From contig NC_087245.1 in the NCBI RefSeq assembly GCF_037042905.1, positions 33,978,001 through 34,038,000 of the forward strand: 60,000 nt of DNA, read 5' to 3'. How positions within the stretch are numbered: the stretch's first letter is position 1; every line of letters starts with the position of its first letter. Position numbers and translations under genes: made by a program. A model generated the notes under the pieces. That model saw only the letters and a list, made by a program, of their open reading frames with translations. It ran no database searches and was not told the origin of the DNA. This DNA is from Lytechinus pictus (Eukaryota). Shown piece by piece: positions 24,812 through 59,274 of the stretch.

Positions 24812-25014
24812 ATGGGAAACGAGAGAGTGGTATTGGTAGTCGCTGTGAGTGCAGCGATTGCCGTGGGAATCGGAGTAGGTGTTCTGATCGGGTGGTACTC
24901 GGGTCCCGATCGAGTGACGAATACATACGAGAATGCCCGAAGAGAGGCCGATGAAGCGATTTCGAGTAAGCTCATAAACGAAATGAATGGTCAGAACTGC
25001 AGGGACGTGTTATG
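24812..25014 (+). CDS. Gene A coding exon 1 (short cytoplasmic tail plus transmembrane anchor)
   Basis: [30 protein letters not shown]...CRDVL(W); donor TG|GTAGGT, phase 2. Confidence 0.88.
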
Positions 25015-28000
25015 GTAGGTAATGTAGATATTACAGAAAACTTGTTAAAGTTTATTTTTTATATTCATTTTCTCCAGATTCATTGAATTCTTAATCTATC
25101 CCAGTGACTATAATTCTATGTGAACAATAATGATACAGTTCATTTCATTCAATTTTATATCACAAAATAACATTTACATGAACAGTATGTATCCATTGAC
25201 ATGACATATACATTTTCACGATGTAACATTATTGTACGCAATAGTCAAGATGGTATGACAATAAAAGCGGAAATTTTACAGCTATACAGTGCGTCGAAAA
25301 AATGTCCCTCTAACATAGGGCTGAAGTAATTCCAAAATGTGGTGGTATTTTCAATCAAATGCACATGGGTAGAAAGCTTATTTCATAATCTAACTTTTAT
25401 GAAAATTTCATTGGACTCGCTTCAGCGGTTTTGGATACACACTCTGTTACGCAACAGTGATGCATTTCAGCCCATTCCAAGTTTGCAACACTACTGTATT
25501 TCTGCATTTTCTTTAACATGTTAACACCGGCACTTTACCATCCAGGATCTGAGCAGGGACATTTGCCTGATCAATCCAGGCGCTCATCAAATCATAAACT
25601 TGAGCATAAGCAGAAGGGTGATAACCATCAAGAATAAAGTTGCTACACGAATCAGTGCACCAACTTGAAAGAAATACGAATGATGGATAAGTACAATAAG
25701 CTGAACAATGAAGAGCAAACCACATGTGTATCACACTTTGAGCCCATTAACTTAATGATATAAAAAAAAGAATGAAATCAAGAATGTATTATTGTTGGAA
25801 TTAGGCATGAAACGCACAATGTTTTGTCTCTATCATTGTGCATCTCCCATTATCAAACTTGAAATGAATTGTCAAGAACTCTTGTTGCCCTTTTTAACAT
25901 GCGCAAGGATGTCATTTGATGAGCCTGGTTAGGCCATGGAGATTTCCTAGTCAGCTCAGGGAATTCCCTGATCAAATTCTGAATGATCAAGGGCTTGATA
26001 TGCTAGGCAGTGCAGAACCAGCAGTGGTAGCAGTGATGTATAATTATGTATGCAAACTTGGAATGGGATGAAAAGCACCATTGATACATAATAGACTGTG
26101 TATTCCAAACCGCTGAAGCGAGACCAATGATTTTTTTTAATAGAAGTTAGGACTTGAGAAGAGTTCCTATTACCATACATTTAATTGAGAATAATTTTAT
26201 TTTTTTCAATTAATTTAGCCGTTTACCTCTGTATCAGAGGGACATTTTTTTGGGGGGCGGGGGTGCGCGCTGTATCAATAAAGCCTTCAGTGGGGAAAGG
26301 GGTGTCTGCACAGCGACAATGAACACAAAACAAATTTATATATAAAATAGAACGAGTTAAAAACGAACATAATATTATGTTGATGGTAATGACTGAGATG
26401 ACAATGACTGATAATAATAACCCCTATAATGGTGATGCGGATGAAGGCAACGATTCTGATGATGAAACTGATGTTAAGGATGATGATGGTGATGATGATG
26501 ATGATGATGGTAATGTTGATGCATGGTAATGATGATGATGATGATAATGATAATGCTGACGATGACGATGTTGATAATGAAGATGATGAATATAATCAAT
26601 GATGATGATAATGGTAATGATGATGATGATGATGAAGATGATAATGATGATGATGATGATGATGATGATGATGGTAATGATGATGATGATGATGGTGGTG
26701 GTAATGATGATGATGATGATAATGATGATGATGATGGTGATGATGATGATGAAGATGATGGGGATGATGATGATGATGATGATGGGGATGGTGATGGTGA
26801 TGGTGATGATGATGATGATAATGGTAATGATGATGATGATGATGATGATGATGAAGATGATAATGATGACGATGATGATGGTAATGATGATGACGATGAT
26901 GATGGTGATGATGATGATGATGAAGCTGATGGTGATGATGATGATGATGGTGATGGTGATGGTGATGATGATGATGATAATGCTGATATTGATGATGATG
27001 ATGATGATGATGAGGATGATGATGATAATGAAGATGGATGGAGGATGAAGCAGGTAAAGAAAAACAGGAAAAAAGAAATGAGATCATGACAGGAAAGTCT
27101 TGGTCATGTGACTTTATAATACCTGACATGCTCGATTTCTTTCACACAGATAAAAAAAAGGAACGTCTTGCGCCCCCACGTTGAAAATCGAAATACCTTG
27201 GTCCTGCATTTGCTTCTCCTTCAACTCTCTTTAAAAGAATATTAATACAATACTTTTCTTCAAAATGTGTCTAATATAGCAGCTTTTTTGCCATTTCGTA
27301 ATGAACTGTTGATTCACACAATATTCCGTCATTTTTTCTTCACACCTTACCTTTGTCACTTACGGTGTGCATTCATATTTGCTTTGATTGTTAAATGTAC
27401 TAAGTATCCTCCAAACAATCATTGTTTTAAGTCCCTATATTTAGTTTTTTATATTATCATATAGGCCTAATCATACTCAAATATCATTTGTATATTGCTT
27501 TTTTGTATGTTTTTGGGGCGTCGTGGTCTAGTGGTTACGACTCTCGTCTCTCAATGATAGGGACGTGGGTTCGAATTCGAATCCCAGCCATGGATTGTTT
27601 TCCACATTGTGCTGCACTCAACCCAGGTGAGGTGAATGGGTACCCAGCAGGATTAATTCCTTGAAATGCACTGAGCTGCTTGAGCTAAAACTGGGGTAAT
27701 GATAATAACAAGGCGCCTTGAAAAAGAGTATTTCTAGAGAGTTGGTGCAATATAAATGCCTATTATTATCATAAAAATTATATTATGTTTGTACATACAT
27801 ACATGCATACTCATTGTTTTTAGAGATGGAAGAAATAAACGGAACTGGATATTATTGTCCCTTGTTTTCATTCCCTCTATCACTGTAAAAAAAACACCAG
27901 TTTAAAATCAAACAGGAGTTGTTTGACACTGACTAGTGTTGTTTAAACATGTTGAACGTGTGTTAGCCCATAAGCTATATACACAAACCGATGTTTCAAT

Positions 28001-30831
28001 ATTTTCCTTATGTTCTACTACGTGTATATATAGATGACGGGCTGGTGTTAAAAATAAATGGTACTTGTGGTAATCATTTCAAAATGGGTGTGTACAGAAT
28101 CCAATGAAATGACCACCCAAGTGTATGTATGAACAAAAACATATGTGTGCCAAAGGATTCTGAAAGAATCTGTTTAACTGCTAAGCAATTAGCAAAACCA
28201 ATTATGAAATCCCAGCCCGATGTCTTGTTTTTTCCCAAGCAATTTCAGTATAATGTCCCACCTGTGCTTATTTGTGTCGGTGAGCTACAGTATAATTGCT
28301 TTTCACCTTAGATTTATCATGGTTTCACAAAGTTCAGTATTATTTAAGTGTTCCACATCTACTCTAGATCTAAGATTAACCTATAGAGACGCTCCCATGA
28401 TGCAATCAGTGTTTACTCTTTCATTGGCGTATTTTTGCAATCACTACGCGGACGCCTTCTACAACGCACCAATTCCTTTGAAAATACAAGTCAAATCACG
28501 GTGGACAGCTGCGAGGCTTTTGTCGAAAGTTGGTGGACCGGGAAAGCAGATTGTCCGAAGATTCGGACCGGACGAAAAAAGAATGCAAATGTGTCCTTTG
28601 TCTAGAGTCAAGGACGACACTGCTGTTTTGTCATTTAAGCTATTTTGACAAAAGGTTTTCTGCGTTATAGAAAGCGTCTACGAAGTAATTGCGAAAATGC
28701 CCTTAGGGCTTGATGGGTGCGTCGTGGTCTAGTGGTTCTGACTCTCGCCTTTCAAACAGAGGGTCGTGGGTTCGAATCCTAGCCATGGCGTGTTTTTCTT
28801 CAGCAAGAAATTTATCCACACTGTGCTGCACTCGACCCAGGTGAGGTGAATGGGTACCCGGCAGGAGTAATTCCTTGCATGCACTGAGCGCCGGTGATGG
28901 TAGCTCGAGCTAAAGCCGGGGTAATAATAGCAGCGCATTGTATATCATCAGGCAAAAAGCGCTCTATAAATCCAGCTATTATTATTATTATCTTTCAATT
29001 AACACCGCGGTTTTGTTGTGTGTAATAACTGTACCCCGCATCCTAGCTTTACCCCCCCCCCCCACCCCCTCTTCTCCCTCCCCCTCCAAGTTCCTGAATT
29101 CGACAATGTCTCTTTGCATGTTCTTTTCATATCTGTCTTATACCATAGGGCATTAACACGAGATCCCCACGTTGCAGGAACGCCACAGAACAAGAAACTA
29201 GCTGATGACATCCTGGCTAATTGGACAAGCTATGGATTTGAAGCGAATATCTACGCTTACAACGTCTTACTCTCATTTCCATCAACGGTAGAGGGAGAAG
29301 ACAACGCGGTATGTCTTTTCTTCTAAATCTAAGAGACTTTTTGTATCCTTTCTTTAAATTGTTTTACTAACTCATACGTGGATTGAAAATCATTGAAGTT
29401 ATACTGGATTAAACAGGAGATGCACACTTTACAATGATTAAAAATGTCTTGTATTAATAGGTTATGATAAATCATCGATGATCCTCAGTTTTTTTTTATT
29501 CTGGGATCCAGTTTATAATTTATTTGTATATCGATTCATTTTGAATATATATAAATCTAGCAGTGTTTAGTGTATAAATTCATCTGTCTACCCATTGCTA
29601 AGTTGTTTTATTGATTTATCAAGTTTATTTATTCATCCACCCATTTATTTACTTATTTCTTAATTCATTCGTTCTTATTCTTTAATTTGAATTGAATGTT
29701 TATGTTTCAGTTTGACTATTTTATTCATTTAATCATACTAATTCATTCATTTGCTAATTCCCTGAAGTGTCTTCATAAAATTCAAAATTTCTTCAAGTTC
29801 ATCTTTTTTTACACAACAGCATCACATTTTCTGTACTTTTTCCAGTCTTTTTCGTTTTTATATGAATTTATAGATATGGATTCAGCTATATACCTTCATG
29901 TACATGAAAATCTGTACTTATAAAATAAATACATATCTACAACTCGTCATCCCATACAGATCAAAGTCTTCAACGGGAGCGACGTGATCTTCCAGAGTCA
30001 GTTAAAAGAGGCTCCATTAGACGATCTATCCCGGGAAAAAGAGGACCTTATTTTACCTCCCTTCAACGCTTATTCTGCCTCGGGCGTACTCTCGGTATGG
30101 TTACGTTGTCATGGTGATGAGGAGAATGATGATGAGGAGAATAATGATGTTTATGAAATTATGATGGTGGTGATGATGGTGGCGGTGGTGATATTGGTGA
30201 TGGTGATGATGACGATAGTGATGGTGATGATAATGATCATGATTATGGTGATGATAATGATGATGACGATGATGAGGAGGTTGATGATGATGATGACGAT
30301 AGTGATGGTGATGGTTATGATAATGATGGTAATGATGATGATGAACATGATGATGATGATGGTGATGATAATGGGGATTTTTATTATTATTATTTTATTT
30401 TGCATTTTTAAAAACATAGAGAATACAAACAAATCAGATATGATGATACATGATAGAGAAAATAAGACCTGGATGAGAGTTGGAGAGGCTGCCTGGGTAT
30501 GGAAAATGCTAACTTAATAGCCACAACCCACAGGTCTTCCTCCCCAAACCTCCCCAACTCCATCCAGGTCAGAAAACTAATGGTAAAAATAAAATGAAGA
30601 TATTTAGAATCGGCAAAATACAATGGTCATACATGTGACTTGGTCACTTCAAGCCAACCCCCACAATACCTCCCGCAATCACATCATTATGTATCTACAA
30701 GCATTTGAATGATAAGCATGAAACATTAAAGCAATCGTAAATTTAAAAATATAAATATATGTACTGCATCTATCATAAGTAATGGGATATAAGACGACAC
30801 GATGATTATAATGATAATGGTGATGATGATG

Positions 30832-30864
<33 letters not shown>

Positions 30865-33800
30865 ATGATGATACTGATAACAATGATTATAATTATAATT
30901 ATAATAACAATGATAATAATAATTATAATGATGATGACATTACAATGATAATAATAAAGTTCCCCACTATACCATAAGATGTTCAGTTCAATGCTTAATT
31001 AAATTCAAGCAGCTCTGGAAACATGTCATTGAAAAAATCACTCCGCCGGTGGAGTATATATATAGAGAGCATAGAACAAAACTGAACTATTTCAGAAATC
31101 GTCAATGAAAATAGAATAAAGATTACCATTATCGTTATCCTCATAATCTTTAACATCTGTCCTTATTACTATGTGTGGTGTATCTTTATATCGGTTTTAG
31201 GGCGATCTTGTGTATGTGAATTATGCTCAACTCTCAGACTTTGAAGACCTGCAAGACCTCAATCCTCCCGTCAACCTTACTGGCAAGATCGCTATTGCAA
31301 GATATGGTAAATTATACAGAGGAGACAAGGTAAGTTCAATTTAATACAGTGCAAAAACTCCGGTGTTCATTTAACACCAGCCCGGAATCTATATATGTCC
31401 ACACCAGAGAAGTGTTAAACAGCACCAGTTTCGTTTTGGTCTAACACCAGATAGGTGTTTATACAACACCAATTAGTATTAAAACAGCATCGGTTTGATT
31501 CCAAACTGGTGTTGTTTCAATACCTCTCTGGTGTGGACATATATAGATTCCGAGCTGGTGTTAAATGAACACCGGAGTATTTGCAGTGTACAATCCTGAT
31601 TACATGGATTATCCGATTTAAAACAATTTAGTTTTTCATCTGTTTGATGTATTCATTTGTGTATTCTTTATCTGTTAACTCATTTACAAACATATTATGT
31701 TTGATGCCTTTTTGTATTGATACATTTATTTGTTCATTCATGCATTCATGCATTTAAACATAAATTAAGTTCCTGTTTGTATTCATAATCACCCTATCTT
31801 AATACAAATGTAGTTGATAACAATTGCTCTAAATGGTAGTTATATGGTGTATACAAGTTTTCTCTCTCCGGAACTGTGTTGCATCATCATCTCTCTACAT
31901 TTAACGAGTATCATGCTAGTTTCTATGTACTTTGATTACCACAAGTTTGCAGTATACAATTTTCAAGTAATTAACCTTAAGAAGTTGAAATTTTGTGTGA
32001 ATATCACTCGAGTCACAATAGAATGGCTGTGGAGTCTTTATCAATCAAAGAGAGGTTTTATTTTTTCTCTCTTCTGCAAGGCTGCACGATTATACTCCAT
32101 AAAGAATATTGAAAGTTTTCATTTCCAACTCCCCCAACAATAGCAGGAATTTCAACACGTTCAATGCAAGTTATCCAATATAAACTATTTGGTATATTAC
32201 ATACATATGCTAGGACATCAACATACGTAGTAGCATGCTACCATGTTTGACTATAAACAATATAGTGATAGAAGTCTCATTTCGTTTTATATTAGAAATC
32301 GTCATAGGCCCGTTTTCTTAAGTCCAATACAGTCAATGCATCAGGCTCCGAAGTAGGAGTGGGGATATGTGCCCTCTCTTTTGGTAACCATGTATTCTGT
32401 TAGAAAAATGAGCCCCCCCCCCCCACACACACACACAATTAAAACATGCATTCTCTCAAGATTGTATGGAGTGGTGATCAAAAGTTAGTGAACCCCGTCA
32501 GAAAATGAAAAGATTTAAAGTAGTCAAGTTCTGCCATATGTTTCAGATATTTAATTGTAAAGTCAGGTGATAAAATATTACATTCAATATATTTTTTCTG
32601 AGCTCTCCGAACATTGTAGTGTTGTTATTTACCTTTAACACTCGGCATGAATGAATGAATGAATTCATTCATTTTGTGGTGGGGTTCACTAATTTTTTTA
32701 GCACAAGTCTATAAAATCATGATTTGATACATTTGTGTACATACATGTAAATTATTATTTGTTAATTATCATACACAAAATACGATTGCTTTCTAAATAA
32801 AATCCATCCAGGCTAAGTTCGCTGCACAGTTTGGAGCAGCAGGTTTGATCCTGTATTCCGACCCCAAGGATTATGCCGTTGAGGGCGCTGAAACATATCC
32901 TGATGGTTTATACCTACCTGGTACTGGAACACAGAGGGGTAGCTGCTTAGATGGCAACGGTGACCCTCTAACTCAAAGCTATCCTGCAATAGGTACGTAC
33001 GTTCCGCTTAGATTGTGGTTATGTGAGTGTGTGGGAGGAGGAAAGGTGGGTGTCGAGATCTGTGTGTGTTTAGAAGGCCCCGTTTATAAGTGGGTATACA
33101 TAGATCGGGGACACATATGGATGCGTTTATGTGTACGTGTAGAATTCAGTAGGTTTTGGAGGCATTGTGTGTGTGTGTGTGAGGGTGTATGTGTAATATC
33201 TCATCAATTTTCGGGAGAGGCAGACGTGTGGTGTGGGTGTGTGATATATGATTCTCACAGGTTTGGTAGAGGCAGTCATGTGGTGTGGGTATGTGATATA
33301 TGATTCTCATACTAGGTTTTGTAGAGGCAATCATGTGGTGTGGGTGTGTGATATATGATTCTCATAGGTTTGGTAGAAGCAGTCATGTTATGTGGGTGTT
33401 TGATTATTATCATAGGTTTGGTAGAGCAGTCATTTGGTGTGGGTGTGTGATATATGATTCTCATAGGTTTGGTAGAGGCAGTCATTTGGTGTGGGTGTGT
33501 GATATATGATTCTCATAGGTTTGGTAGAGGCAGTCATTTGGTGTGGGTGTGTGATATATGATTCTCATAGGTTTGGTAGAGGCAGTCATTTGGTGTAGGT
33601 GTGTGATATATGATTCTCATAGGTTTGGTAGAGGCAATCATGTGGTGTGGGTGTGTGATATATGATTCTCATAGGTTTGGTAGAAGCAGTCATGTGATGT
33701 GGGTGTTTGATTATTATCATAGGTTTGGTAGAGGCAGTCATTTGGTGTGGGTGTGTGATATAATTATGATTCTCATACTAGGTTTTGTAGAGGCAATCAT

Positions 33801-36800
33801 GTGGTGTGGGTGTGTGATATATGATTCTCATAGGTTCGGTAGAAGCAGTCATGTTATGTGGGTGTTTGATTATTATCATAGGTTTGGTAGAGGCAGTCAT
33901 TTGGTGTGGGTGTGTGATATATGATTCTCATATGTTTGGTAGAGGCAGTCATTTGGTGTGGGTGTGTGATATATGATTCTCATACTAGGTTTTGTAGAGG
34001 CAATCATGTGGTGTGGGTGTGTGATATATGATTCTCATAGGTTTGGAAGAAGCAGTCATGTTATGTGGGTGTTTGATTATTATCATAGGTTTGGTAGAGG
34101 CAGTCATTTGGTGTGGGTGTGTGATATATGATTCTCATAGGTTTGGTAGAGGCAGTTATTTGGTGTGGGTGTGTGATATATGATTCTCATAGGTTTGGTA
34201 GAGGCAATCATGTGGTGTGGGTGTTTGATATATGATTCTCATAGGTTTGGTAGAGGCAATCATGTGGTGTGGGTGTGTGATATATGATTCTCATAGGTTT
34301 GGTAGAAGCAGTCATGTGATGTGGGTGTTTGATTATTATCATAGGTTTGGTAGAGGCAGTCATTTGGTGTGGGTATGCGATATAATTATGATTCTCATAG
34401 GTTTGGTAGAGGCAATCATGTGGTGTGGGTGTGCGATATATGATTCTCATAGGTTTGGTAGAAGCAGTCATGTGATGTGAGTGTTTGCTTATTATCATAG
34501 GTTTGGTAGAGGCAGTCATTTGGTGTGGGTGTGTGATATATTATTATCATAGGTTTGGTAGAATCAGACATGTGGTGTGGGTGTTTGATATATGATTCTT
34601 ATAGGTTTGGTAGAGGCAGTCATGTAGTGTGGGTGTTTGATATATGATTCTCATAGGTTTGGAAGAGGCAGTCATGTGATGTGGTTGTTTGATATATGAT
34701 TCTCAAAGGTTTGGTAGAGGCAGTCATGTGGTGTGGGTGTTTGATATATGATTCTCATAGGTTTGGTAGAGGCAGTTATGTGGTGTGGGTGTTTGATATA
34801 TGATTCTCATAGGTTTGGTAGCTAGAGGAAGTCATATTGTGTGTGTGTGTGATGTCTGATTCTCATAGGTTTGGTAAAGGTAGTCATGTGGTGTGGGTGT
34901 TTGATATATGATTCTCTAGGTTTGGTATAGAGGCAGTTATGTGGTGTGGGTGTGTGATATATGATTCTCATAGGTGTGGTAGAGGCAGTCATGTTGTGTG
35001 TGTGTTTGATATATGATTGTCATAGGTTTTGTAGAGACAGTCATTGTGTGAATGTGCGATATATGATAACATTACTTAAGGTTTGGTAGAGATAGCCTTG
35101 TGGTGTGGATATGCGGTATATTCATTAGCATAGGTTTTGTAGAGGCACTCGTGTGGTGTCGGTGTGTGGTGTCTGATTATTAATAGAGCTTTTAGATCCA
35201 GAGGCAGTCATGTGGTGTGTATGTGCGACGTCTGACTATTAGAGCTGCAGAAATGTGGTGTGGATGGGTGATGTGTGATAATTATAGATCTGGGAGATGC
35301 CGACATGCGATGTGCGATGTCTGATTATTTGGTTTGGGAGAGGCAGACATAATATGTTGTTGATGTGCGATATCTGATTATGATATGTTTTGAAGTGACA
35401 TAAATGTGGCGTGGTATGGGTGTGCGATGTCTGATTACTATGGCCTGTATTCTGAAGTCAGGTTTAACTTAGACCATGGTCCAACTATGTGCTAAAATTA
35501 TGGGAAGCCAAAGGTGTCAAAATTTTTATTAAGTTGTATGTTTCTTATGTTTACTGTGCTCTTTCCTGATTCATCGATGGTGAAGACAATCATCTATTTA
35601 TACTTTCTCGACAATTATGAATGATTTGAGAGCCAAATGAGCTGAAGTATGATAATCTATACTGTTAGTGATTTATGTAACGATTGGCTTCCCATACTTA
35701 AACCACAACTTTAAACCCGAGTTTAAGTTAAACCCGACTTCAGAATACGGGCCTATTGGTTTTGTAGAGGCATGTGTGTCTATACGAGTTTGTGCATGAG
35801 GTTATGTGAGTGGGTGTGATGTATGGAGTCGCATTTACCTACATATTGGCTCATAGTGATTTGCGATTTCCTTTATCCGACAGAGAGTGCCTATCGTTTA
35901 CCCATGGAGAAGTCTACCATGCTCCCCACCATCCCAATCCATCCCATTGGATACGACGATGCCAAACTATTGCTTGAGTGAGTATCGTTCCAGGAGTTAA
36001 ACATCTTTTGAACGTATGCATGGTTTAGCTTTGCATCCCTCTCCCTATCTCTATCTTTCTTTCTATATTCTAGGCAGTTGTCATCGTATTGTCCACCTCA
36101 TGTACTTGTGTTGTGTTGTGTCGTGTTATTGTCCTTGTCTCTGAATTTCAAAATTCTGTACATAAGATTTTTGTTTTTGTTTTTCCCCCCCCCCCCCTTT
36201 TCGTTACTTATTTTCATGTACTCCTTTACGTATATTTCAATATTCCTTGTATCTAAGTTTTTGAGGGGTCCACATTCTACAAGCTTTGCTTTTTAGTGGA
36301 CCCCTCCATTCTTCTTATTGATATATACTTATATTGATTTTAATTATATTATATTTAATTATATTGATTATATTGATTTAAAATTGATATACACGTTAAT
36401 CTATATTTGAATTACTTATTGAATGTTGAATCTTGTTCATGCTTTTGTTTAAATTGAATCAATTATCTTGTACATATTTATATTATGTTGAAGAATGAAA
36501 AATAAATTTGAATTGAATTGAATTGAATGGTATGGTGGTTCCGAAAGACTGCTAGCAACACGGGAAGCCTTATGACAATATCCCGACAGACTGACAGATC
36601 TGAAGGAATCGCCAACCTGATTCCGAAGAACACTCCTGCGCATGCTGAAACGCTGTAGTATCCCGGTTTCATAATTTTCATGACATTACTAAGACATATA
36701 AAGGAGACATGCATACTCGCTTGCTGTCCGTTGTCAGATCCGTTATAAACACACACACACCCACCCACACACACACACACCCTACACACAAAACAACTAT

Positions 36801-39135
36801 CTCTTTATTTGTACGTATAATAAATTTTTCGTAATTTTGTTTTCACTTTCAGTTCCTTTGTTGTTCTTTTTCTGAGATATCTTGTATTTTCCCCCTTCTT
36901 TCTTAGCGCTTTGAAACTTTTGTATAAAGCGCTCTATCAATTTTGTATATTATTATTATTATTATGATCCCTCTCGTTAGTCCCTTGATTAGATCAATCG
37001 TCCCAGCAATGATAATGTCCTGAATTTAGATATCCAATCGTGCTGTTCCACTATAATGTGATAATAGTAGGCAAGTGTTTATTTAAAAAATAAAAGAATA
37101 AAAATAACGATAATAATCGTGCGTTGTATCATCCCTTTCTTCAGGAAAATGGGTGGAGAGCCCGTAGAGGACGAATGGGCGGGTGGTCTAGACTTGACCT
37201 ACAGATATGGCCCAGGATTTAGAGAGGAATACGAACAAATGTAAGTTGTAACACTGTAATCTGATTTGTGGTTACTTATTTTGTCGATGACTGAATAAAA
37301 AAATATGTTGGATTTTAAAATTCGTACGGGTGAAAGATTTTTAAAAAGCAGGGTTCGTCAAATTCAAAATGTTTATTTCAAAATACAATGTACCACGATG
37401 CTTTTGCAAGTATTTTAGTAATATCAACTACTATGGTTACTGACTTTTTTCAACAAAATAAATGTCTTGGACTTACGTGAAGAATAATTGACCTATATCA
37501 TGAACGAGGGCATTAATGGTATTCAAGTGAAACTGATCATGAATTGCAGGCCACGTGATCAATTACTCATTTATAATATCTTGTTCCCGTGATCGAAGTC
37601 TTGCATGGCTAATGTATGCATATTGGAATGGATATATTTTAGATTAAATCTAGACTAGATTTGGGAGGTTATAAAGTCAGAAGATTTTTTTCTCGAAATT
37701 TTAGAAGTTAGATGTGTAACATATTTTTGGTCTCAGTGGCAATGGGGGAGGCATAAATTGTGACCGCGAGTAATCGAAGATCCATCCTGTTTGAGAAACA
37801 ATTTTTAAAGGTTCTCATTTGCAAGTCAAACTATAATTCAACCAAGGTGGAATCAGATGCACACTTTTTTTTATCTTTTTAAATTTTGGTGAAATTCAAT
37901 ACTTTGTAGGGAGGTGACAATGAGCATCTACACCAAAAACCAGATGGCATATGGATGGGATGTGATCGGAGTAATCAGAGGAAGCGTTGAACCAGGTAAG
38001 AAAACATTACCCACTTAGTTCAGTCAAAAGAGGGATTCTATATTGGATGGGAGAGAGCTAGGCTATTTTTCTTCCTAATTCCAAAATCGGATAGCAAACA
38101 GATCGTGTACTGTTAGCGGGACTCTAGGATATACCGTACTGCCGCTGCTGCTTCTGCTACTGCTATTGATGTCGATACTACTGCTACTACTACCAATTAT
38201 GACAGCAGATTTTGGGAGGCGTATGGGGCTATTCTGATCTACTGATAAAGTGTTGATATGCATATTATTATACTGACATGAAAATTGTACATTTTAAACA
38301 GTGTATGAATTCATAAACGTGGTAACACTGATGAAATAATGCACTCACAAAGTAATTTATTTTTTAAAGTGCTTACCCGAAAATTTCGATTATCATTTGC
38401 ATAATTACCATATGATTAAACATATAGTTTGTTGAAGTTTGTTGATATACTGACCTGAAAACGGTGCATTTTAAGCATAATTTTGTAACAGTGAAGGAGA
38501 AACATTCAACAAATATACCGATCGCGAAGCACGACCAAAACGTTTTGGTATATTGCCTTGAACAATTTTATTGAAAACGTGAACACCTACGATATGTATA
38601 TCATGAGACATATGATGCAGACTTTAAATGCTCAAATTTAAGTAGATACACTGGCCTGAAAACGAATATTTTAAGCGTTTTTTTTTTAATACTTCCAAAA
38701 ACAAACTAATCAGAGGGCGAATAAAAATGCGAACTGAACTACTTCTTTTTCATATTGACTTTAGACCGAGACACTTTAAGCGCGATGTAATTCTATATCT
38801 CATTATTAAAACGGGTAGTGCGAGTGTAGAGTACTCCTACCACCACTCCCACAAACCCTACCTACTACTACTATTACCACTACTTCTGCTGCTGCTACTT
38901 CTACTACTACTACTACTACTACTACTACTATTACTACTACCACTACTACTACTGATGCCACTACTACTACCATGACTTCTACTACTTACTATTACTACCA
39001 ACTCTTCTTTTATCTCCGCCTCCGTCATCACAATCGTCACTGGTCGTACTTCTCCTACTATTACTACTACTACTACTACTACTACTGCTGCTACTACTAC
39101 TACTATCATTACTACTATTACTACTATTACTACTT

Positions 39136-39168
<33 letters not shown>

Positions 39169-42100
39169 GATCTTCTTCTACTACTACTACTACGAGAACT
39201 ACTACTAATACTAGATCTACTTCTACTAGAACTACTACTGCTGCTGCTCCTTTTGGTGAGGAGCAGAGGGACGGAGGGAAATTATATTACTCTGTGACAA
39301 AGTTTCTTTTATTCATCGAATCGCTCTTGTCATTGATAAAACAATCTCTCTTTTTTCCAGATCGTTATGTATTGATTGGTAACCATCGTGATGCTTGGGG
39401 TTTTGGTGCCATTGATGCTGGTAGCGGTACAACTGCCATGCTTGAGATCAGCAGGGCCATGAGTGTACTGGTAGAACAAGGTAAATATATCACTGATCAG
39501 GGGAAGCACGGTATTTCAATAACAATAATAATATAATAATTAATAAAATGAATATTTAATTGAATAAGATAATAATAATAATATTATAATCATAATGATA
39601 ATGAATCATGATAAATAATACTTACAATTTTCATACTTATAAAAATAGTAATAATAGTGATGAAAATAATCATAATAATAATAATTATTATTATCATTAT
39701 TATCATTATCATTATTATTGTAATTGTTATTATTACATTATTATTTTTATTATTACCATTATTATTATTATTAGTAGTAGTAGTAGTAGTATCATTAGTA
39801 TTATTATATGAGGTGGTAGATGTAAACATCAATTTTTTTTCCACCCAGGGAAAAGAAAAAGCTAAACAACACATTACTATCTTTTGATGCCCTTCTCTCT
39901 TATTTCTTCCATTTCCTTCCTCTTTTCTTTTCCTCTTTTTTTTTCTTACTACTTGGAATGAAAAATCAAATAGTCCAGCAACCCCATGACCCCGATAGTA
40001 TCACCCCCGTATGTTTACGGATGAATGCAATACACAATCATCTTACACCCAATATTTTTTTTTAAGTAAACCAGTGTTAGCCATCAAAGTTCAGAGTCTA
40101 TTAGCTGGGTTTACTTTTATTGTCCTATATCACACTGGAGTAATATGAAGTCTAATTTCATATAAAATATGGAGAATGTCCTCCCTATTGTATATTTCAT
40201 GCAAAATGCCTTCCAGTATCGTATTCAATGCATACAAGTCGTTTCCACGAAACTTTTCGTTCATCTGTAGAGAAAGGGAGAATAAACTCGTTCTGAAAAT
40301 GAGATGGTACATAGTTTATTGTTGCTTTGTTGGTAGGCTGGAGACCTCGTCGTAGCATCATGTTCTGTAGCTGGGGTGCCGAAGAACAAGGCTTGATTGG
40401 GTCAACAGAATGGGTTGAGGTAAGTAAGTCTACATGATTCCATAACCAGTAAAGACACGATCGTGATTCGATGACGTCGCCAATTCAGACGTTGCTCTTC
40501 ATAAGATGATACTTAACATTTTATCAATATCAATCTTCTATAGGGTTACTTAGCCTTTATAGCCAATGCTCAATGCATTCTTACTCTCCTTTTTGTCCTA
40601 TTCAATGAAATATATTTCCCCGAATTTAACCGTCGTGGTGGTTCATGAACGGGGTGTTGTGGGGTCGATCCCTGGCCTACGATCTAGCTAGGTGTTGGGC
40701 ATGTGAGAAAGAAGACAGGTGATTATGACAAGTCAATGGTATGTTTAAGCAAGACCCGATGGAGAATTGCAATATACAGGAGTTCAATTTTAGTCATTAA
40801 TTCGACATTTTCGTTCTTAACTTTTTTCCCCTCAGAGTATGACAAGTCCATGGTATGTTTAAGCAAGACCCGATGGAAAATTGCAATATACAGGAGTGCA
40901 ATTTAATCATTAATTCGATATTTTCGTTCTTGACTTTTTCCCCTCAGGAATTCGCTAAGAATTTGGGAATAAGAGCTGTAGCTTATTTAAATCTTGATGT
41001 TGCCATGGATGGTGAGTAATTTTGTTTTTTAAATGCAAAATACTATTGTTTTATCGGGTGTTCAAATAGTATGGTGTCTTTTGGGGGGGCCTACATATTA
41101 ATCGCTCTCAAATAAATGAATTTATCATGTGTATTGTAAAAGATAAAACACTTTTTAGAAGAAGATATTAATGCATAAAGTACTTCTTGACAATTTCAAA
41201 CAAACTTACATTTAAAGCTTCCATTGACCCAGTTTTATTATTGCTTGATTGATAAGTCTAATTGAATCGTTATTAAGGTATTGTGTAAAATACAAAAAAT
41301 CATTCTTGGTTTATTTGTTGGAGGTTTATTGAGTTTTATTGAGCCGCAATGCTATTACCTATCCCTGACTAAGGGAAGCAGTTTGTTTTAATCTTTGATT
41401 TAAATATTTTCTTATTTCATATTGTCTTTTTAAGAAATATATTCCTACAAAACTTGACTTTACTTTAATACTTGTATTTCACATTGACACAATTAAATGT
41501 AACCATCATTCTCGTCATTTTGTAATGATTTTCTTTCCTAAACTTAGGTACGTATGTCCCTAATATAGCTTCCACACCGAATCTGAATAGACTGATTTAT
41601 GAAGCAACAAAGAAGGTAGGCACAAAACATATATCACGAATCAAACATCACGATCTTCAATGTAGTACTAGCTTAATTAATTTGTTCATTATCTTTACCT
41701 TTGTTTCAAACTTCGTTTTTCGAGCCATATATCATTTGACCGATTTTCAATGCAAAGGTACTTTTTTGTCTTGAATGATTCATGTCTTAACAAAGAAAAC
41801 CAATTATATGTTAGGAAAACTGTAGTGGATTTTCCTTCAAGACAGGCATATTTGTGAACATACAAACACATTATATTTTCCTGTCTTTAAATGGCTCTTT
41901 GTTCGGTTTTATATGATAAAGTAAACTATTTTCATGATTATTCTAAAACTTTTATCATGGTTATGATTGATTTAAGTGTCAAATGAGCTGACAAATGAAA
42001 CTTTACTGTTCACAATTCGCTATCCATAATGGCACCACGTCTTTGGACTAGAGTTTGAATTAAAACCGAGTATTAAAGAACACAGTCTGATCATACGCAG

Positions 42101-45100
42101 TGTTCTCAAAAGGTAGTTTCGGTAGAATTGTGTTGTGTAACTGTTTTGGGTCTATTGCATGAGTAAAGCTGTCTTAAACATTATTGAAGTCAACGTTATT
42201 ACTATCTTTATTGCATGTTTGTTTTCGTTTCTTTTGTTTTAAGATCCCTGCTCCCGGCGATGACACAAACACGATGTATGATCTGTGGAAAGAACGTGGG
42301 GAAAGTGGCACCGATGGGGAACCAAGGTGAGTTAAGAACAAGAATCAACTGGTACAAATGGCGAAACAAGTTGAGTTAAGAACTTGGGCCAACTGGCACC
42401 AATGGATTAGAACAAGGGTCAACTGGAACGGATGGCGAACCAAGGTGAGTTGGAACATGGATCAACTGGTACGATGACGAACCGAGGTGGATCAACTGGT
42501 ACGAATGGCAAACTAAGTTGAGTTAAGAACGTGTGTCAACTGGTACGAATGATAAACCAAGGTAAGTTAAAAACACGTGTCTACTGGTACACGTGGCGAA
42601 ACAGTGTGGGTTAAAAACGTGTGTCAACTGGTAAGAATGGCGAACCAAGGTGAGTTAAGAACCTGGGTCAACTTGTACGCATGGCAAACCAAGGTAAGTT
42701 AAGAAAATGTGTCAACAAGTACGGATGGCGAATCAAGGTGGTTTAAGAACGTGTGTCCACTGATTCGGAGGCGAACCAAGTTGAGTTGGAGCATGGGTCA
42801 AATGGTACAGATGGCGAAAAACAATGCGAGTTATGAACTTGGGTTAACTGGTACGGTGACGATTTAAGAACGGAGTCAATCGCTCTGCATGGCGAACCAA
42901 GGTAGTTTAAGAACGAGAGTCAACTGGTACGGATGGCAAACCAAGTTTAGTTAAGAATATTTGTCAACTGGCTTGGATGGCGAACCAAGGTGAGTTACGA
43001 ACTTGGGTCAGATTGAGAGGATGGCGACCCAAGGTGAGTGAAGAACTTGGGTCAACTGGTAAGAATGACGAATCAGGGCGAGTTTAGAACATGGGTCAAC
43101 TGGTAAGGATGGTGGACTAAGGGAAATTAAGAACATGGGTCAAAAGATACGGATGGCGAACCGAGGGGAATCGATGGTCAACTGATACGGATGATGAACC
43201 AAGTTGAGTTGAAACATTGGTCAACTGGTACAGATGGCGAACCAAGGTGAATTAAGAACGAGGGTCAACTGGTATAGGTGGCGAAACAAGGTGAGTTAAG
43301 AACTTGGGTCAACTAGAAAAGATGACGAACCAAGGTGTGTCAACTGGTACGAATGGTGAACCAAGGTGAATTAAGTACGAGTGTCAACTGATTCGGATGA
43401 CGAATCAAAGTCAGTTAAGAACGAGGATCCACTGGTACGAATAGCGAACCAAGTTGAGTTGGAACATTGGTCAACTGGTACAGATGGCGAACCAAGGTGA
43501 ATTAAGTACGAGGGTCAACGGGTATAGGTAGCGAAACAAGGTGAGTTAAGATCTTGGGTCAACTAGAAACGATGACGAACCAAGGTGGGTCAACTGGTAC
43601 GAATGGTGAACCAAGGTGAGTCAAGAACATTGGTTAACTGGTACGATGACGAACCTATATGAGTGAAGAACATGGGTCAACTGGTACGGATGGCGAACCA
43701 AGGTGAGTGAAGAACATGGGTCAACGGTAATGATGGCTAACCAAGCTGAATTAACCCATCTCCAAGATAAACAAATTAAACACATGGTTGAATTTATTAA
43801 TTTACATTGGACACGTGACAAAGTTATCCTCCAAGATTAAGATTTCATCTGTAAGTGGTACCATCTGAATTTTAATTATGTTACCGCCATGGTCATTGAG
43901 TTGATACGACACTGTTAACGTATTTATGAAAGAAACATGAGAATCGACGATAGAGTGTATTGATGTGTGTGAGCTAGATGAGGTTTTTGTTTATGGATGA
44001 GATAGAAAGAGACAATTTTTGGAAAATTGGAAGAAGATGTGAGAGAAAGAAACAGAATGAGAAAGTGATCAATTTGTGATGTTTTCCAAAATAATGTGTG
44101 TATAAATGAGGTACGAGTTCATGCTGCGATGTTAAGTGTTGCTGTACGAAATAATAATCAAGAGGATAAACTGTGGAAGAGATCTATATTACCAGTTCTC
44201 CTACATCTCTCTAGACTATATGAATGCAATTGACGCTTTTTCATCAATTATGATGGCAACATCAGATCTTTTAGATTAAAAAAATGTTCTGAAGATCATT
44301 CTGCAATCTCAGAAGCAACATCAATTGTGCCAGTTAATCCTGAGAATAAGTTTGAAAACTGTTTCTCATCTATTTTATTAGTATTGGTACTCTTGGATCT
44401 GGCTCTGATTATGCACCGTTCTTACAGATAGCTGGAATATCGGCAATGGACTTCACGTACACATACAATAGGGTGAGTATACATTCCTTGAGAGATATCA
44501 GTTAACCGATTTTTTTACTACCAGGCGGGCGTCTCATAAAGCTGGTCGTAAGTTAAGAGCGATCTTAAGAACTGGTGATCATTTCTTGTGGTAAATGATA
44601 TTCACCATTAAATGTTTATTGGAGATTATTTAGCTCGGAAGAAAGGATCACCAGTTGTTCATTAAAGTCGCTCTTAATTTACGAACAGCTTTATGAAATA
44701 ATTAGAAGCGTTTATGGTTAGTCTTCTCTTTTCAGGTTATGATGAAAGGTTTGAAATCCAAAATATGATCATGCTTTTGATTTGCTGATAAGTAACTAGC
44801 TTCACCAAGTTATTTTTTTATTTGATTATTATTGTTAGGCCCTATTCAGCAATCGTCCGTGTAAAAGGGTAAATGACCGATTACCATCATGGCCCTGTTT
44901 CATAAAGACTTGTTATAATAACAAATACACAATTTCTATAACAAGTTTACTATCAACCAGTCAAATCGAATAATTTCAGTAGCTTTAAACTGTTTTATGG
45001 TATCTGTCGATGCCACCAATCATATCCTTGTTTCGGATTGCAGGAAGCAACACCCGTGGCATCTTATCCCTGCTATCACTCCGTCTATGAGACCTTCGAA

Positions 45101-48100
45101 CTCGTCGACAAGTACTACGACTCGCAGTTCAGGTACATCCTGGCGGCTGGTCGTCTCTACGGCGAGGTGATGAGACAACTTGCAGATAATGTCATTCTTC
45201 CTATGGATCCGTTAGATTACGCCGTGACGGTGGCTGGATACTGGAACAGCCTCCAAACAGGATACATCGGTATACAGATGGACGCAAACGGCATAGACTT
45301 CAGTGAGTTATTTGATTATTATACAAATGCTTTGAATTTAATAGTAAACTTCGTTCACTTAACATGAATATTGTGTTATACAATTGCGGGCGCGTCGTGG
45401 CCTAGTGGTTCTGACTCTCGCCTTTCAAACAGAGGGTCGTGGGTTCGAATCCTAACCATTGCGTGTTTTCCTTCAGCAAGAAATTTATCCGCACTGTGCT
45501 GCACTCGACTCAGGTGAGGTGAATGGGTACCCGGCAGGATTAATTCCTTGCATGCACTGAGCGCCGGTGATGGTAGCTTGAGCTAAAGCCGGGGTAATAA
45601 TAGCAGCGCTTTGTATCCTCGGGTAAAAGGCGCTTTATAAATATAGCTATTATTATTACAATGATACAATGGTAACATAAGAAATAATCATTATTACAGT
45701 AACAGCTGTGTGAAAGCTGATAGTGGAGAATTTTAACTAAAAGTTTGCAAGATGTTGAATTGTCTGGTACAATAATTAATGTATGGCTATTGTTCAGGTA
45801 ACGCGACATTTACTCCTTCACAATATGCCTCTTCATTAATTTCTCCAAAATTATTAAGTAAGCTTTAGGGCTGTACTAATGCTCTTGATCAAAATTATAT
45901 ATTAGGATCAATTCAATTCAATTCAAAATGGTTCATTTAAATAAAAAATCAATCGCAGCTAGGGATAGCTTTGAAGCTAAGGCTTGCGTTGTGTGGATTT
46001 TCGATATATATATATATATATATCTTGGGGGGGGGGGTTGAGATATTATAGCGGGATCATAGAATACTTTTCCAGCCTACTGCAAAACATGATTTGTTAA
46101 AGAAATCAATGTGTTGGTGAATTCATAGAATCATGAGAATATTGTCCGGTACAGTTTAATAATAATAGTGATAAAAACTGAATTAATGTAGTGCCTTTTC
46201 CAGGGGATTAAAAGCGCAAATAATATTTTACCCGTGCTTTGATTGGCTTGAGGTGCCGCTTCTAGCGTTCAGAGTACTCATTTAATTACAGAGTTTTCGC
46301 AACTGCAACGGAGACGGAATTAAGAACACAGTATGTATTGAAAATGCCCGTCAAATGACAGCTGGGAGGTCTTTGTCGACAATTGGGGATCTGGAACGTC
46401 CATTTTGTTCTACGTATCGTTTGTCCAGAATCCAGAACGAAGATTTTACCAGTTTTCGAAAAAGACTTCTTGGTTGTCCTTTGTCATAAAGGACATTTGA
46501 CATTACATTTTCTATGTTCTTGAATCCCTCATTCGTCGTGGAGCGTTGTGGCCCAGTGGATTAGTCTCCGGACATTGACACAGAGGGTCGTGGGTTCAAA
46601 TCCCAGCCATGGCGTAGTTTCCTTCAGCAAGAAATTAATCTACATTGTGCTGCACTCAACCCAGGTGAGGTGAATGGGTACCTGGCAGGAATTTATTCCT
46701 TGAAACGCCGAGCGCGTAAAAGCTGCTTGATCATGAGCTACAGCCAGGGTAATAATATCCAAGTCCTTTGGAAGCGCATAGAGACGTTATTTATAATGTA
46801 TTTTGCGCTATACAACTGACTATTATTATTGTTATTGATAATAACAAAAAATAAAACGAAAATTTCCTATTGAAATATGCAGAATAGCCATTCCCTTCAC
46901 CTAGATTCTGATTGAGTGCAGCAAAATATTGACATTTTTCTTGCTGAAGAACGGCGTGGTTGGTATTCAATCCCACGACCCTCTATGTGAGAAACGGGGT
47001 CTAGAACGACGGCGAGTACAGACTGATTTTCAACTCCTAACATGTAATTCTTAACCAATTTTTCGTTCGGTCGAACATACCAACAAATTTGTCTTTTTAT
47101 CTTTTAATTCTTCTGGTTGTTCAGATAATTTTGTTGAGGAGTATTTGACCTTGACCTGTATCTCATTATGTAGCTCTCGATGCTTCATCAGTGATTCAGG
47201 AGTTTATATCTTCGACATTTTTGCGGGAGCAAACTATATAGACAAAATTATACCAATCATTTATGCTGTTATGAAATAAGAATTATGTATCTTGCTCTTT
47301 TATTGATTTATTACCTATTACTATGATAATAATACTTATTATTACTAGTATTACTATTAACGTTATTATAGTTATTATAATTATTATTATTATTTATATT
47401 ATTATTATTTATAGTTACAGTTACTAATATTATTATCATCATTATTATTTCACCTTCTCTCTCTCTCTGATTAGCCTATATGCTTTCGGCAGTGGGCAAC
47501 TTTACCTCAGCCGCAACAGATTTCAACGCTCAGCTCGAGAATATCAACAAAGATGAGTAAGTAGACTTTACCTACGCTGTCTAGTGCGCGGCCCCTGGTC
47601 TAGTGTCATGGCTATACAATTTTTTTTCTTCAGATTTAGGAGACAATGCCGACAAAGACTTAAAGCACGAATCCGGTAAATTAATAATGTTAGATTCACA
47701 CAAGAAGGGACTTGGGGTAATTTTAACAATGATTTTTTTTTTAATTCCCTTTTAATTTGCTGCAGATATTTTGAGTTTTACTTGAAATTTCGAATTAATT
47801 TTTGCATCATTGGATAGCCTACGATGTCCTCTCTCAATATTTGAAAGAAAGAAAGAAAGAAAAAGAAAGAAATCGTAAAAAAAATTCCCCAAGTCCCTAC
47901 TTGAGGGAAGCCGACGATGTTATAGGGCCCAAGATCAATGAGCGTCGGATAGAAATTAACAGGGAGTTTTTATTCCATCATCACCCTGTGATGGGGAGAC
48001 TATATAACAGTGTTAGTGTAATGCTGGAGAATCCTTTGGATAGAACCTTGTAAATGACCCGAACTGCAGTTCAAATTGAACTGGAAACTAAATTGAGAGT

Positions 48101-49641
48101 CATTCATGCATGTTGAATCATTGGATATGTTCAGTCTACGCTTGCCAAATGTTTGACGTATGTGTTGAATGCCCAGCCAGTAAAGAAAAATATCGTGTTT
48201 AGATTAATTTACAGGGTATCTAATTCTGATACTTGTATTGTTAAGCCCCCATCACAGTTATTCCGAATCAAGTAGAATTGGCCGGAATGAAAGGACTGTT
48301 GTTCGACCACCAGTTGGTCATTTAAATCTACTTCGAACACCGTTCGAAAATACCCCTCGAATATTTTGTACATGACCAAAACCTTCGGGACGGCCAAAAG
48401 AAATGACAAAAATATTTCGAATGCAGTCAGAATATTTAGAATGCGCCTAGAATGTCCAAGAATGTAGCACGAATTATAAATCTGACTCCATTGCGGTTCA
48501 TTTTGACTAGTGTATGATGATTCACCTGGTCAATTTACTGAATTTCAACTCCAGTTTGGTGAATTCATAAGTTCTTCCCAAAAATTTCTAGTTTTTTTAT
48601 ATATTTTTTTCGTTCCAGCTTCTGCTTGATTCCTGCTGATTCCGAATAAGTGAATCCAATGTGTATTAGATTGCTACTATTATGCTTATCCAATGCATTA
48701 TAGTATTAGCGTCAGTCAAATCGGTCACTCATCACCTTGTCACTCATCAATTGTTCTCTTTTACTTTTTCTTACTAGTCTTTTAGCTGTACGTCGAGTGA
48801 ATGATCAGCTGATGTACCTTGAGAGAGCCTTTATTGATCCTATGGGTCTAACCGGAAGACCAACAACTAAGTAAGTCACAGTGATTCTTATTTATCCAGT
48901 GTGGGTAAATAACCTCTTCAACACATTGATTTTCAAGCGGATCCTGCATAAACATAATAGTATCATTACCCTTTTCCATTCTAGAAAAGTCGAGCGCCTG
49001 ACAAGAAGTCAGGTCACACTTTTCAAGTATTTGGTACAAAATAATAGACAATTGTTTCCGGGATATTGCATTGTTCACATTTTTATAGTGATTCTTTAAA
49101 ATAAATATACTTCATCTGGATCTGAATTTAAGCCAATATAACAGGATCTTAGTCTAAACAGAATATCCTCACTGTCTCTATTTAGTGAACAGGGAATTCT
49201 GTAGAAATTTGGAAGCATTTTTAAGAACATGGATATCCCAGTTTTCCTCCCTCGAAATAAAAGACGGATAAAGGGAGATGACGAATTTCCATCGTACACT
49301 TTGGGGAGAAATTGATTATGAATATAATTCGCGCGCATATGGAATGGATGAAAAAACAAAAGTTTCGAGAAAAAAAACGTTTTTATCAACGAAAAATAAT
49401 ATTTTAACACATGTCACTGTTTCTCTGTATTTCCAGACATGTTGTATTTGCACCCAGTAGTGCCAACGCTTACGCAGGCGAAAAATTCGCCAGCATTGTC
49501 GATGCCATGTACAACATCCAAGATCTCCCCGCCGATCAGGAGCAATGGGAACTCGTCAAAAAAGAACTCTCAATCGTCACGTACTTAGTGCAGTCAGCGG
49601 CCGACTCTTTGAAACCGGTTGCGTTTCAGCCCCAGTATTAA
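24812..49641 (+). CDS. NAALAD-like: M28B zinc metallopeptidase (glutamate carboxypeptidase II / N-acetylated-alpha-linked acidic dipeptidase family), type II membrane protein, 18 coding exons, 743 aa (gene A)
   Basis: Exons joined by hand at GT-AG with compatible phases: 24812-25014, 29149-29308, 29960-30094, 31201-31329, 32812-32992, 35884-35977, 37145-37240, 37910-37995, 39361-39480, 40337-40419, 40948-41011, 41548-41615, 42244-42326, 44382-44472, 45044-45302, 47475-47556, 48778-48870, 49437-49641 (2232 nt including TAA). Motifs: N-terminal signal anchor, PHVAGT, PA domain ([32 protein letters not shown]), [31 protein letters not shown], TfR-like dimerisation domain ([18 protein letters not shown]). 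Exact orthology (FOLH1/NAALAD2/NAALADL1) is not resolved. Confidence 0.95.
25287..26272. mobile_element. Non-autonomous Tc1/mariner element in intron 1 of gene A
   Basis: TA|CAGTGCG...AAAAAATGTCCCTC and GAGGGACATTTTTT...CGCGCTG|TA; further imperfect inverted arms. Confidence 0.6.
26440..27035. repeat. (GAT)n microsatellite
   Basis: Direct reading; source of the poly-D, poly-M and poly-H ORFs. Confidence 0.95.
27515..27770 (+). mobile_element. tRNA-derived SINE (degraded copy)
   Basis: GGGGCGTCGTGGTCTAGTGG, GGGTTCGAAT, CTCAACCCAGGTGAGGTGAATGGGTACC. Confidence 0.8.
28715..28990 (+). mobile_element. tRNA-derived SINE (young copy)
   Basis: A and B boxes, core and (TAT)n tail; nearly identical to 45388-45659. 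Confidence 0.9.
29149..29308 (+). CDS. Gene A exon 2
   Basis: catag|[19 protein letters not shown]...[26 protein letters not shown]. Confidence 0.93.
29960..30094 (+). CDS. Gene A exon 3
   Basis: acag|[20 protein letters not shown]...[22 protein letters not shown]. Confidence 0.92.
30110..30375. repeat. (GAT/GGT)n microsatellite
   Basis: Direct reading. Confidence 0.9.
31201..31329 (+). CDS. Gene A exon 4 (PA domain)
   Basis: tttag|[20 protein letters not shown]...[25 protein letters not shown]. Confidence 0.95.
31347..31588. mobile_element. Near-perfect palindromic CACTG-type MITE, TA-flanked
   Basis: About 85-bp inverted arms (ACTCCGGTGTTCATTTAACACCAGC.CGGAATCTATATATGTCCACACCAGAGA). Confidence 0.85.
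32812..32992 (+). CDS. Gene A exon 5 (PA domain)
   Basis: ccag|[25 protein letters not shown]...[27 protein letters not shown]. Confidence 0.95.
33225..35440. repeat. 52-bp intronic minisatellite, about 40 units, decaying toward the 3' end
   Basis: Unit GTGATATATGATTCTCATAGGTTTGGTAGAGGCAGTCATGTGGTGTGGGTGT. Confidence 0.95.
35442..35753. mobile_element. Harbinger-like MITE (same family as 23475-23778)
   Basis: Same TIRs and body. Confidence 0.8.
35884..35977 (+). CDS. Gene A exon 6
   Basis: acag|[40 protein letters not shown]. Confidence 0.94.
37145..37240 (+). CDS. Gene A exon 7
   Basis: ttcag|[40 protein letters not shown]. Confidence 0.93.
37910..37995 (+). CDS. Gene A exon 8
   Basis: tgtag|[36 protein letters not shown]. 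Confidence 0.93.
38858..39245. repeat. (CTA)n microsatellite
   Basis: Direct reading. Confidence 0.95.
39361..39480 (+). CDS. Gene A exon 9 (zinc ligands His and Asp)
   Basis: ttccag|[43 protein letters not shown]. Confidence 0.96.
39520..39810. repeat. (TAA)n/(TTA)n low-complexity tract
   Basis: Direct reading. Confidence 0.9.
40337..40419 (+). CDS. Gene A exon 10 (catalytic Glu-Glu)
   Basis: ggtag|[38 protein letters not shown]. Confidence 0.96.
40721..40947 (+). repeat. About 112-bp tandem duplication that includes the acceptor of exon 11
   Basis: Both copies end TTTTCGTTCTT.ACTTTTT(T)CCCCTCAG (40835 and 40947). Confidence 0.9.
40948..41011 (+). CDS. Gene A exon 11 (zinc ligand Asp)
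   Basis: ctcag|[31 protein letters not shown]. Confidence 0.95.
41548..41615 (+). CDS. Gene A exon 12
   Basis: cttag|[33 protein letters not shown]. Confidence 0.93.
42244..42326 (+). CDS. Gene A exon 13
   Basis: ttaag|[38 protein letters not shown]. Confidence 0.92.
42290..43754 (+). repeat. 44-bp minisatellite derived from the 3' end of exon 13 plus its donor site, about 30+ units
   Basis: Consensus AAGAAC.TGGGTCAACTGGTACGGATGGCGAACCAAG|GTGAGTT; the first unit (42290-42333) is the exon end itself. Confidence 0.93.
44382..44472 (+). CDS. Gene A exon 14
   Basis: attag|[40 protein letters not shown]. Confidence 0.95.
45044..45302 (+). CDS. Gene A exon 15 (zinc ligand His)
   Basis: tgcag|[29 protein letters not shown]...DANGIDF; A|GTGAGT. 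Confidence 0.96.
45388..45659 (+). mobile_element. tRNA-derived SINE (young copy)
   Basis: Nearly identical to 28715-28990. Confidence 0.9.
46538..46840 (+). mobile_element. tRNA-derived SINE, followed by an inverted fragment (about 46880-47010)
   Basis: GTGGAGCGTTGTGGCCCAGTGG, GGGTTCAAATCCC, core and (TAT)n tail. Confidence 0.85.
47475..47556 (+). CDS. Gene A exon 16
   Basis: attag|[36 protein letters not shown]. Confidence 0.93.
48778..48870 (+). CDS. Gene A exon 17
   Basis: actag|[39 protein letters not shown]. Confidence 0.95.
49437..49641 (+). CDS. Gene A exon 18 (terminal)
   Basis: tccag|[25 protein letters not shown]...[10 protein letters not shown]. Confidence 0.95.
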
Positions 49642-54565: not shown

Positions 54566-54749
54566 TCAAACGGGTTGCAACATGTAAGCTGCTGACTGGA
54601 TGAAATAGGTGACCTGAGCCAACTCCATTTTTACATATTCCCATTTTTCAGGATCGGGATTGATATCAATTTCAAACATGGCGTCCACGATACCCGCAAA
54701 CTTTTCCCCGGCGTACGAGTTCTTGCTGCTGGGAGCGAGGATGACATGT
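54566..54749 (-). CDS. Gene B terminal exon
   Basis: gacag|A; HVILAPSSKNSYAGEKFAGIVDAMFEI...YMLQPV*. Confidence 0.94.
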
Positions 54750-58646: not shown

Positions 58647-59274
58647 CTGAAAGTATAAATACATACAGGTAATAGTAATAGCAGTGACTTTCGGGACAGG
58701 CAAAGAGTTTGTGTACGTTTTTTTTCATTCGTTTTCGAATTGACTCGTGTACAAAAGTTCTGACTTAAGTTTTTTTTAAACCAAAATCTGTCTTATAACA
58801 CGTATGTCTATGAGTTTTTTTCAAAGTTTTGAATTTTACTTAGGAGACATTAGGAATTTCGAATTTTACTTAGGAAATATCATGTTGGTGCTGGACTTAT
58901 TATTTTCCACTGAATTCTGTCTTACAACACGCATTCTATGGAGTTTTGGCAAAGTTAGGAATTTCGAATTTACAAGGAAATATCATGTTGATACCACATT
59001 GTAAACTCCTGAAAAAGACGGAGGGTCGTCGAAAATTCGAGTGAATAATAAAAACTTTATTGGTAATCAAAGCATCATCATCAGCATTATTGTGTTATAT
59101 ATATATTTATACAAAGGATGTGGAATTTCTTTTCGGTATCCAACGCAAGGTGTTCCTTTTGTGTTTCTTACGTAACTGCGTATTTCGAGTTTTCTCGTTG
59201 CGCTAACAAGCATATCTTTTCCATTCTCGGCTCAGCATTATTAGCTCGACTTCCCACCCCCCCCCCCCCTTTTT

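Follow-up and report, generated by a model that had tools for sequence, protein, structure and literature searches.

Host gene and junction array

We analysed a 60-kb window of Lytechinus pictus DNA, and all positions are those of this stretch. A GCPII/NAALADase-like peptidase gene runs along the + strand as a GT-AG chain of 18 exons, whose translation reproduces the 743-aa protein P0003 exactly, so that the exon number 13 and the coordinates given in the initial annotation are right. The end of exon 13 and the first nucleotides of intron 13 (2055 nt) form the first unit of a 44-bp minisatellite that continues into the intron. The features are as follows, with a slash marking the exon-intron boundary:

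24812..49641, + strand: host gene, GCPII/NAALADase-like peptidase, 18 coding exons, identical to P0003 (XP_063956970.1, Lytechinus pictus)
42244..42326, + strand: exon 13, 83 nt, phase 2 end; its last 37 nt are the coding part of array unit 1
42290..42333, + strand: array unit 1, lying across the exon-intron boundary and made of 37 nt from the end of exon 13 and the 7 intron nt that follow
42327..42332, + strand: authentic 5′ splice site of intron 13, GTGAGT in the context AAG/GTGAGT, with an immediate TGA on read-through
42334..43752, + strand: 34 intronic units of the 44-bp minisatellite (TRF and unit alignment)
42445, 42562, 42650, 42694, 42990, 43034, 43291, 43541, 43616 and 43703, + strand: strong pseudo-donors (position of G+1), AG/GTRAGT
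43211..43622, + strand: younger higher-order duplication, period 250, units 23-26 versus 29-32, 92-98% identical
44382..44472, + strand: exon 14, to whose acceptor both informative runs join 42326

With the exon at 45044-45301 a single relative was found, a Lytechinus variegatus protein that is GCPII/NAALADase-like. P0003 falls in a cluster of four proteins, two from L. variegatus (P0002, P0004) and two from L. pictus (P0003, P0005); each species has a near-identical pair under two accessions, which could reflect recent duplication, haplotypes or different versions of an assembly. Precomputed Pfam assignments place PF02225 (PA), PF04389 (Peptidase_M28) and PF04253 (TFR_dimer) on the cluster representative P0002. 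P0003 lies in the same cluster, and the host protein is thus predicted to have the full GCPII/NAALADase domain set. A second GCPII-like paralogue is placed tail to tail with the host gene; its 3′ exons (54569-58648, - strand) are 55-63% identical to P0003, and its equivalent of exon 13 was not found within the window. Just upstream of an acceptor of this paralogue (- strand) stands a pyrimidine-rich 103-bp repeat (2.2 copies, 55550-55772) that stops short of the AG.

Unit alignment resolves the whole array into 35 units (42290-43752). The initial annotation had rightly described a 44-bp unit running from exon 13 through the donor, but its count of about 30 copies was too low. TRF reports the period-44 array with a score of up to 874, far beyond chance. 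Across the 34 intronic units 212 of 1417 letters depart from the consensus, the mean pairwise identity is 0.75, and the single 250-bp internal duplication is the trace of a past change in copy number. Outside the array, the only match to the unit in the 60-kb window is one at E=0.89, and Rfam gave 0 matches in 41500-45200. No long open frame was found in the array on either strand, with 19-30 stops in each of the six frames. Candidate acceptors in the array have at most 11 pyrimidines in 20 nt, compared with 10-18 at the 17 real acceptors. On these two grounds we rejected cassette exons or recursive AG/GT sites within the array.

Other repeats occur in the window. Intron 5 holds a 52-bp minisatellite of 37.5 copies (33216-35168) that is wholly intronic, begins 224 nt past the exon and has AG/GT in most units. 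A 113-bp tandem duplication (40721-40947), with copies that are 92% identical, runs up to the acceptor of exon 11; it has left behind, at about 40835, a decoy acceptor whose pyrimidine tract is complete. In both informative runs exon 10 is joined to the real, downstream acceptor at 40948. Two identical blocks about 1.6 kb apart (10438-10615 and 12007-12184), each made of two exact 89-bp units, are possibly the termini of a young mobile element.

Pseudo-donors and the splicing of intron 13

A GT in register is present in 17 of the 34 intronic units, and three further GT dinucleotides were created at deletion junctions. The full motif AG/GTRAGT is kept in 10 of 34 units, 8 of those 10 reading CCAAG before the GT, which is short of the "many units" credited with the donor in the initial annotation. 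The companion statement, that the copies match U1 as well as the real site does, holds: pairing to the U1 5′ end is -10.6 to -11.5 kcal/mol for the ten strong copies and -10.7 kcal/mol for the real donor. Structural masking of the copies is unsupported, and local folding gives the real donor no accessibility advantage (P(unpaired) of 0.012, against 0.001-0.173 across the ten strong copies).

Use of the nearest strong copy, which is unit 4 in this allele, would produce a 201-nt exon, and the next one an exon of 318 nt. Read-through of exon 13 past the first donor gives CCA AGG TGA, as had been noted initially, and would end the 743-residue protein after residue 501. This premature stop is generic because it is built into a phase-2 GTRA donor, and the first read-through codon is a stop in all six phase-2 introns of the host gene. 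A premature stop with exon junctions downstream makes an mRNA a substrate for nonsense-mediated decay (NMD). A transcript leaking from an array donor would stop after residue 501 with junctions still to follow, and would therefore be such a substrate. Nevo et al. (2012, PMC3510495) report that more than 98% of latent donors in human coding introns are preceded by an upstream stop.

We compared 4 of 18 candidate runs over the region 40300-45400, two as contigs (X1, X5) and two as raw reads (X16, X18), with a read likeness threshold of 85 that left the tables dominated by transposon reads. The label of X1 and X5 as RNA is a guess, and their joints show that the contigs are spliced. In X1 (organism A, depth 76.5) and in X5 (organism B, depth 628), one contig each is spliced through introns 10-13 with GT-AG joints, 42326 to 44382 among them. 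No array bin of X1 has any depth, and the depth of its exon 13 bin corresponds to 84 letters, the exon alone. Among the joints listed for these contigs none starts in the array and none skips an exon, in tables that omit 65 joints and 501 letter differences; contigs drop rare splice forms, and contig depth is a poor measure of level. The main spliced form thus uses the most upstream donor, in agreement with the P0003 model. The proposal that the first site is strongly favoured fits both contigs, as well as the human precedents (PMC1557585). The raw-read runs, represented by about 6 in 100 of each run, contained only repeat-derived reads, with zero depth on any gene exon, and are thus uninformative for a leak. 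In intron 14, high-copy elements with inverted ends (44530-44700 and 44890-44995) attract thousands of reads from other sites in the genome.

X5 also contains a second contig of 281 nt at depth 8.77, aligned to 42310-42502 with 22 letter differences and 7 gaps; it has an intact GT in unit 2 (42371 T>G). Its placement is uncertain because the region matches another part of the array at 83%, and it could derive from a different part of the array of organism B. The loose 81 nt of this contig do not fall on the start of exon 14, where the excess depth is 79 and 193 would be needed, and the contig therefore resembles unspliced RNA or DNA. Sequence behind the first donor is thus present at a low level in X5, as pre-mRNA, DNA or leak.

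Decay, origin and age of the array

The letters of the donor have decayed like the rest of the unit. In the 34 intronic units 12 of 61 GT positions are changed, compared with 173 of 1140 positions outside the donor (p=0.36), and for positions -3 to +6 the count is 39 of 277 against the same background (p=0.71). Dropping units 28-32 leaves the picture similar, with 11 of 52 GT positions (p=0.23) and 37 of 237 positions from -3 to +6 (p=0.76) changed against 145 of 974; all of these tests have low power, the units being non-independent through common ancestry. The donor 8-mer occurs 8 times, which is the median of all 44 consensus 8-mers. Nor was there a signal of preferential loss of nearby donors, as strong copies account for 1 of the 5 units close to the exon and for 9 of the 29 beyond them. 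At the power of these tests, the donors appear to be neither preserved nor purged within the array. The initial annotation had asked whether donor bases are more or less conserved than the rest of the unit and had named equal decay as the sign of a neutral expansion; equal decay is what we observe. An ABCA7-type repeat with selected donors would be expected to keep its donor letters better than the rest of the unit, and this expectation fails here.

The coding sequence at the end of exon 13 is old: across 15 echinoderm proteins, comprising the four cluster members and 11 of 60 matches, residues W488, R491 and P500 show little or no variation. Together with the lack of matches to the unit elsewhere in the window, this indicates that the array most likely arose from the exon rather than the reverse. 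Between unit 1 and the array consensus there are 7 differences in 44 positions; all are coding and 3 are synonymous. Four of the exon-specific letters are missing from every intronic unit that could be scored (0/34, 0/34, 0/34 and 0/33), and the remaining three occur in 9/30, 2/34 and 2/32 units. At the two variable residues both L. pictus proteins read E-S and both L. variegatus proteins A-T, while the array consensus reads S-T. Judging from these letters the array may keep an older state of exon 13, making it a possible fossil of that exon: its consensus Thr is the Thr of L. variegatus as opposed to the Ser of L. pictus, and 3 of the 7 differences between exon and array are synonymous. Polarising E-S, A-T and S-T by an outgroup failed, there being no further close echinoid among the matches and the rest being too diverged.

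Related repeat DNA is present in organism B. Among the exon differences listed for this organism, K>N at 45112, V>M at 45167 and R>S at the joint of exons 14 and 15 are those of P0002 and P0004, so its exons match L. variegatus. The presence of related repeat DNA in a second organism suggests that the array is probably old. The array seems to persist in two species, something that neutrality permits without requiring it.

Interpretation and known junction minisatellites

We consider this likely to be an old and essentially neutral junction minisatellite in decay, with position deciding in favour of the first donor. Its seed would have been a tandem duplication that took in 37 nt from the end of exon 13 and the first 7 nt of intron 13; the array would then have been amplified to about 35 units that decayed through point changes and short deletions, with one later duplication of 250 bp. 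The spliceosome would define the 83-nt exon 13 and pick the most upstream donor; from the human F7 gene we infer that this choice is made by position. The copies would be silent or nearly so, lying farther from the exon's acceptor and having no acceptor of their own. Any rare leak would carry the stop of the phase-2 GTGA donor and be fed into NMD.

The copies might be leaky without being selected, with unit 4, the nearest intact one, used in a few percent of transcripts that carry the stop and are degraded. U1 pairing as good as that of the real donor is in keeping with this, as are the low-depth X5 contig behind the first donor (8.77 versus 628), with its intact GT in unit 2, and human precedents, namely the extra donors of IFI6 and CBS (PMC1557585) and the one-unit retention isoform of ABCA7 (PMC5954066). 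However, the joints listed all start outside the array, X1 shows zero depth over it, and the loose end of the X5 contig lies off the start of exon 14; we regard appreciable leakage as unlikely. A larger role, with the length of the array or stress adjusting expression by way of NMD-coupled donor use, exon skipping or the loading of U1, we judge very improbable. It could draw on the repeat DNA in the second organism, on the donor-containing repeat of ABCA7 that alters exon skipping and expression (PMC5954066) and on the latent donors that heat shock activates in human cells (PMC3510495). Yet the donors show no excess conservation, the strong motif is absent from 24 of 34 copies, no skipping joint is listed, and the units are only 75% alike, where a VNTR that is homogenised and changes rapidly would have more uniform ones. 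We find no positive evidence for the copy-number-tunable NMD or U1-loading element suggested in the initial annotation. In its fullest version the array would be a long-lived splicing rheostat common to two Lytechinus species, with donors switched on by stress or in particular tissues and stop-carrying transcripts lowering GCPII output according to the number of intact copies. We give this little credence; if true, it would be an invertebrate case of expression control by a donor array, and tuning by the array would amount to heritable, length-based control of mRNA level outside mammals.

A further suggestion had been that the array could rewrite the last codons of exon 13 by gene conversion. 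The two species do differ at the codons concerned (E-S versus A-T), and unit 3 has 2 of the 7 exon-specific letters (columns 20 and 23), the sole hint of a possible exchange near the edge. However, the E-S codons of L. pictus rest on letters that no intronic unit has, the array consensus reads S-T, and the two proteins within each species agree. The exon has diverged from the array and not towards it, which makes such rewriting extremely unlikely.

The array is a member of the class of exon-intron junction minisatellites with pseudo-donors known from human F7 IVS7, CBS and IFI6: unit 1 spans the authentic boundary (42290-42333, donor 42326/42327), and the donor is reiterated downstream. Among the papers listed by our literature searches, judged by titles and the openings of abstracts, none dealt with a sea-urchin case of such a repeat or with the present locus. 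Human F7 intron 7 holds a 37-bp VNTR with identical donors, of which the one farthest upstream is the only one used (Borensztajn et al. 2006, PMC1557585). The sea-urchin array resembles it in having its first unit across the exon-intron boundary, its donor reiterated downstream and the most upstream site alone seen in use. However, F7 has 5-9 units with identical donors and 4 exonic bases, whereas the urchin array has 35 units with 37 exonic bases, is 75% identical between pairs of units and retains 10 strong copies out of 34; furthermore, the F7 repeat is a vertebrate (human) VNTR, and the invertebrate array is known at the length of one allele. The same architecture is described for minisatellites of 10-25 copies in IFI6 (6-16) intron 2, CBS intron 13, LMNB2 and PDGF intron 4 (as cited in PMC1557585), which are similar to the urchin array in copy number as well. 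In 6-16 and CBS two pseudo-donors are reported to be used, whereas none is seen in use among the joints listed for the urchin contigs. The 25-bp VNTR in human ABCA7 intron 18 (De Roeck et al. 2018, PMC5954066) ranges from about 12 to 427 units and likewise has a donor within the repeat, with a premature stop at the next copy. It differs from the urchin array as observed here in that its length tracks exon 19 skipping and expression. Latent 5′ splice sites (PMC3510495) are also unused intronic consensus donors behind a stop codon, but they are dispersed chance matches, unlike the urchin copies, which are tandem duplicates of a real donor. The array thereby extends to a sea urchin a class described in human genes, adds a long and decayed example to it, and could be used as a natural minigene for position-based donor choice in an echinoderm.
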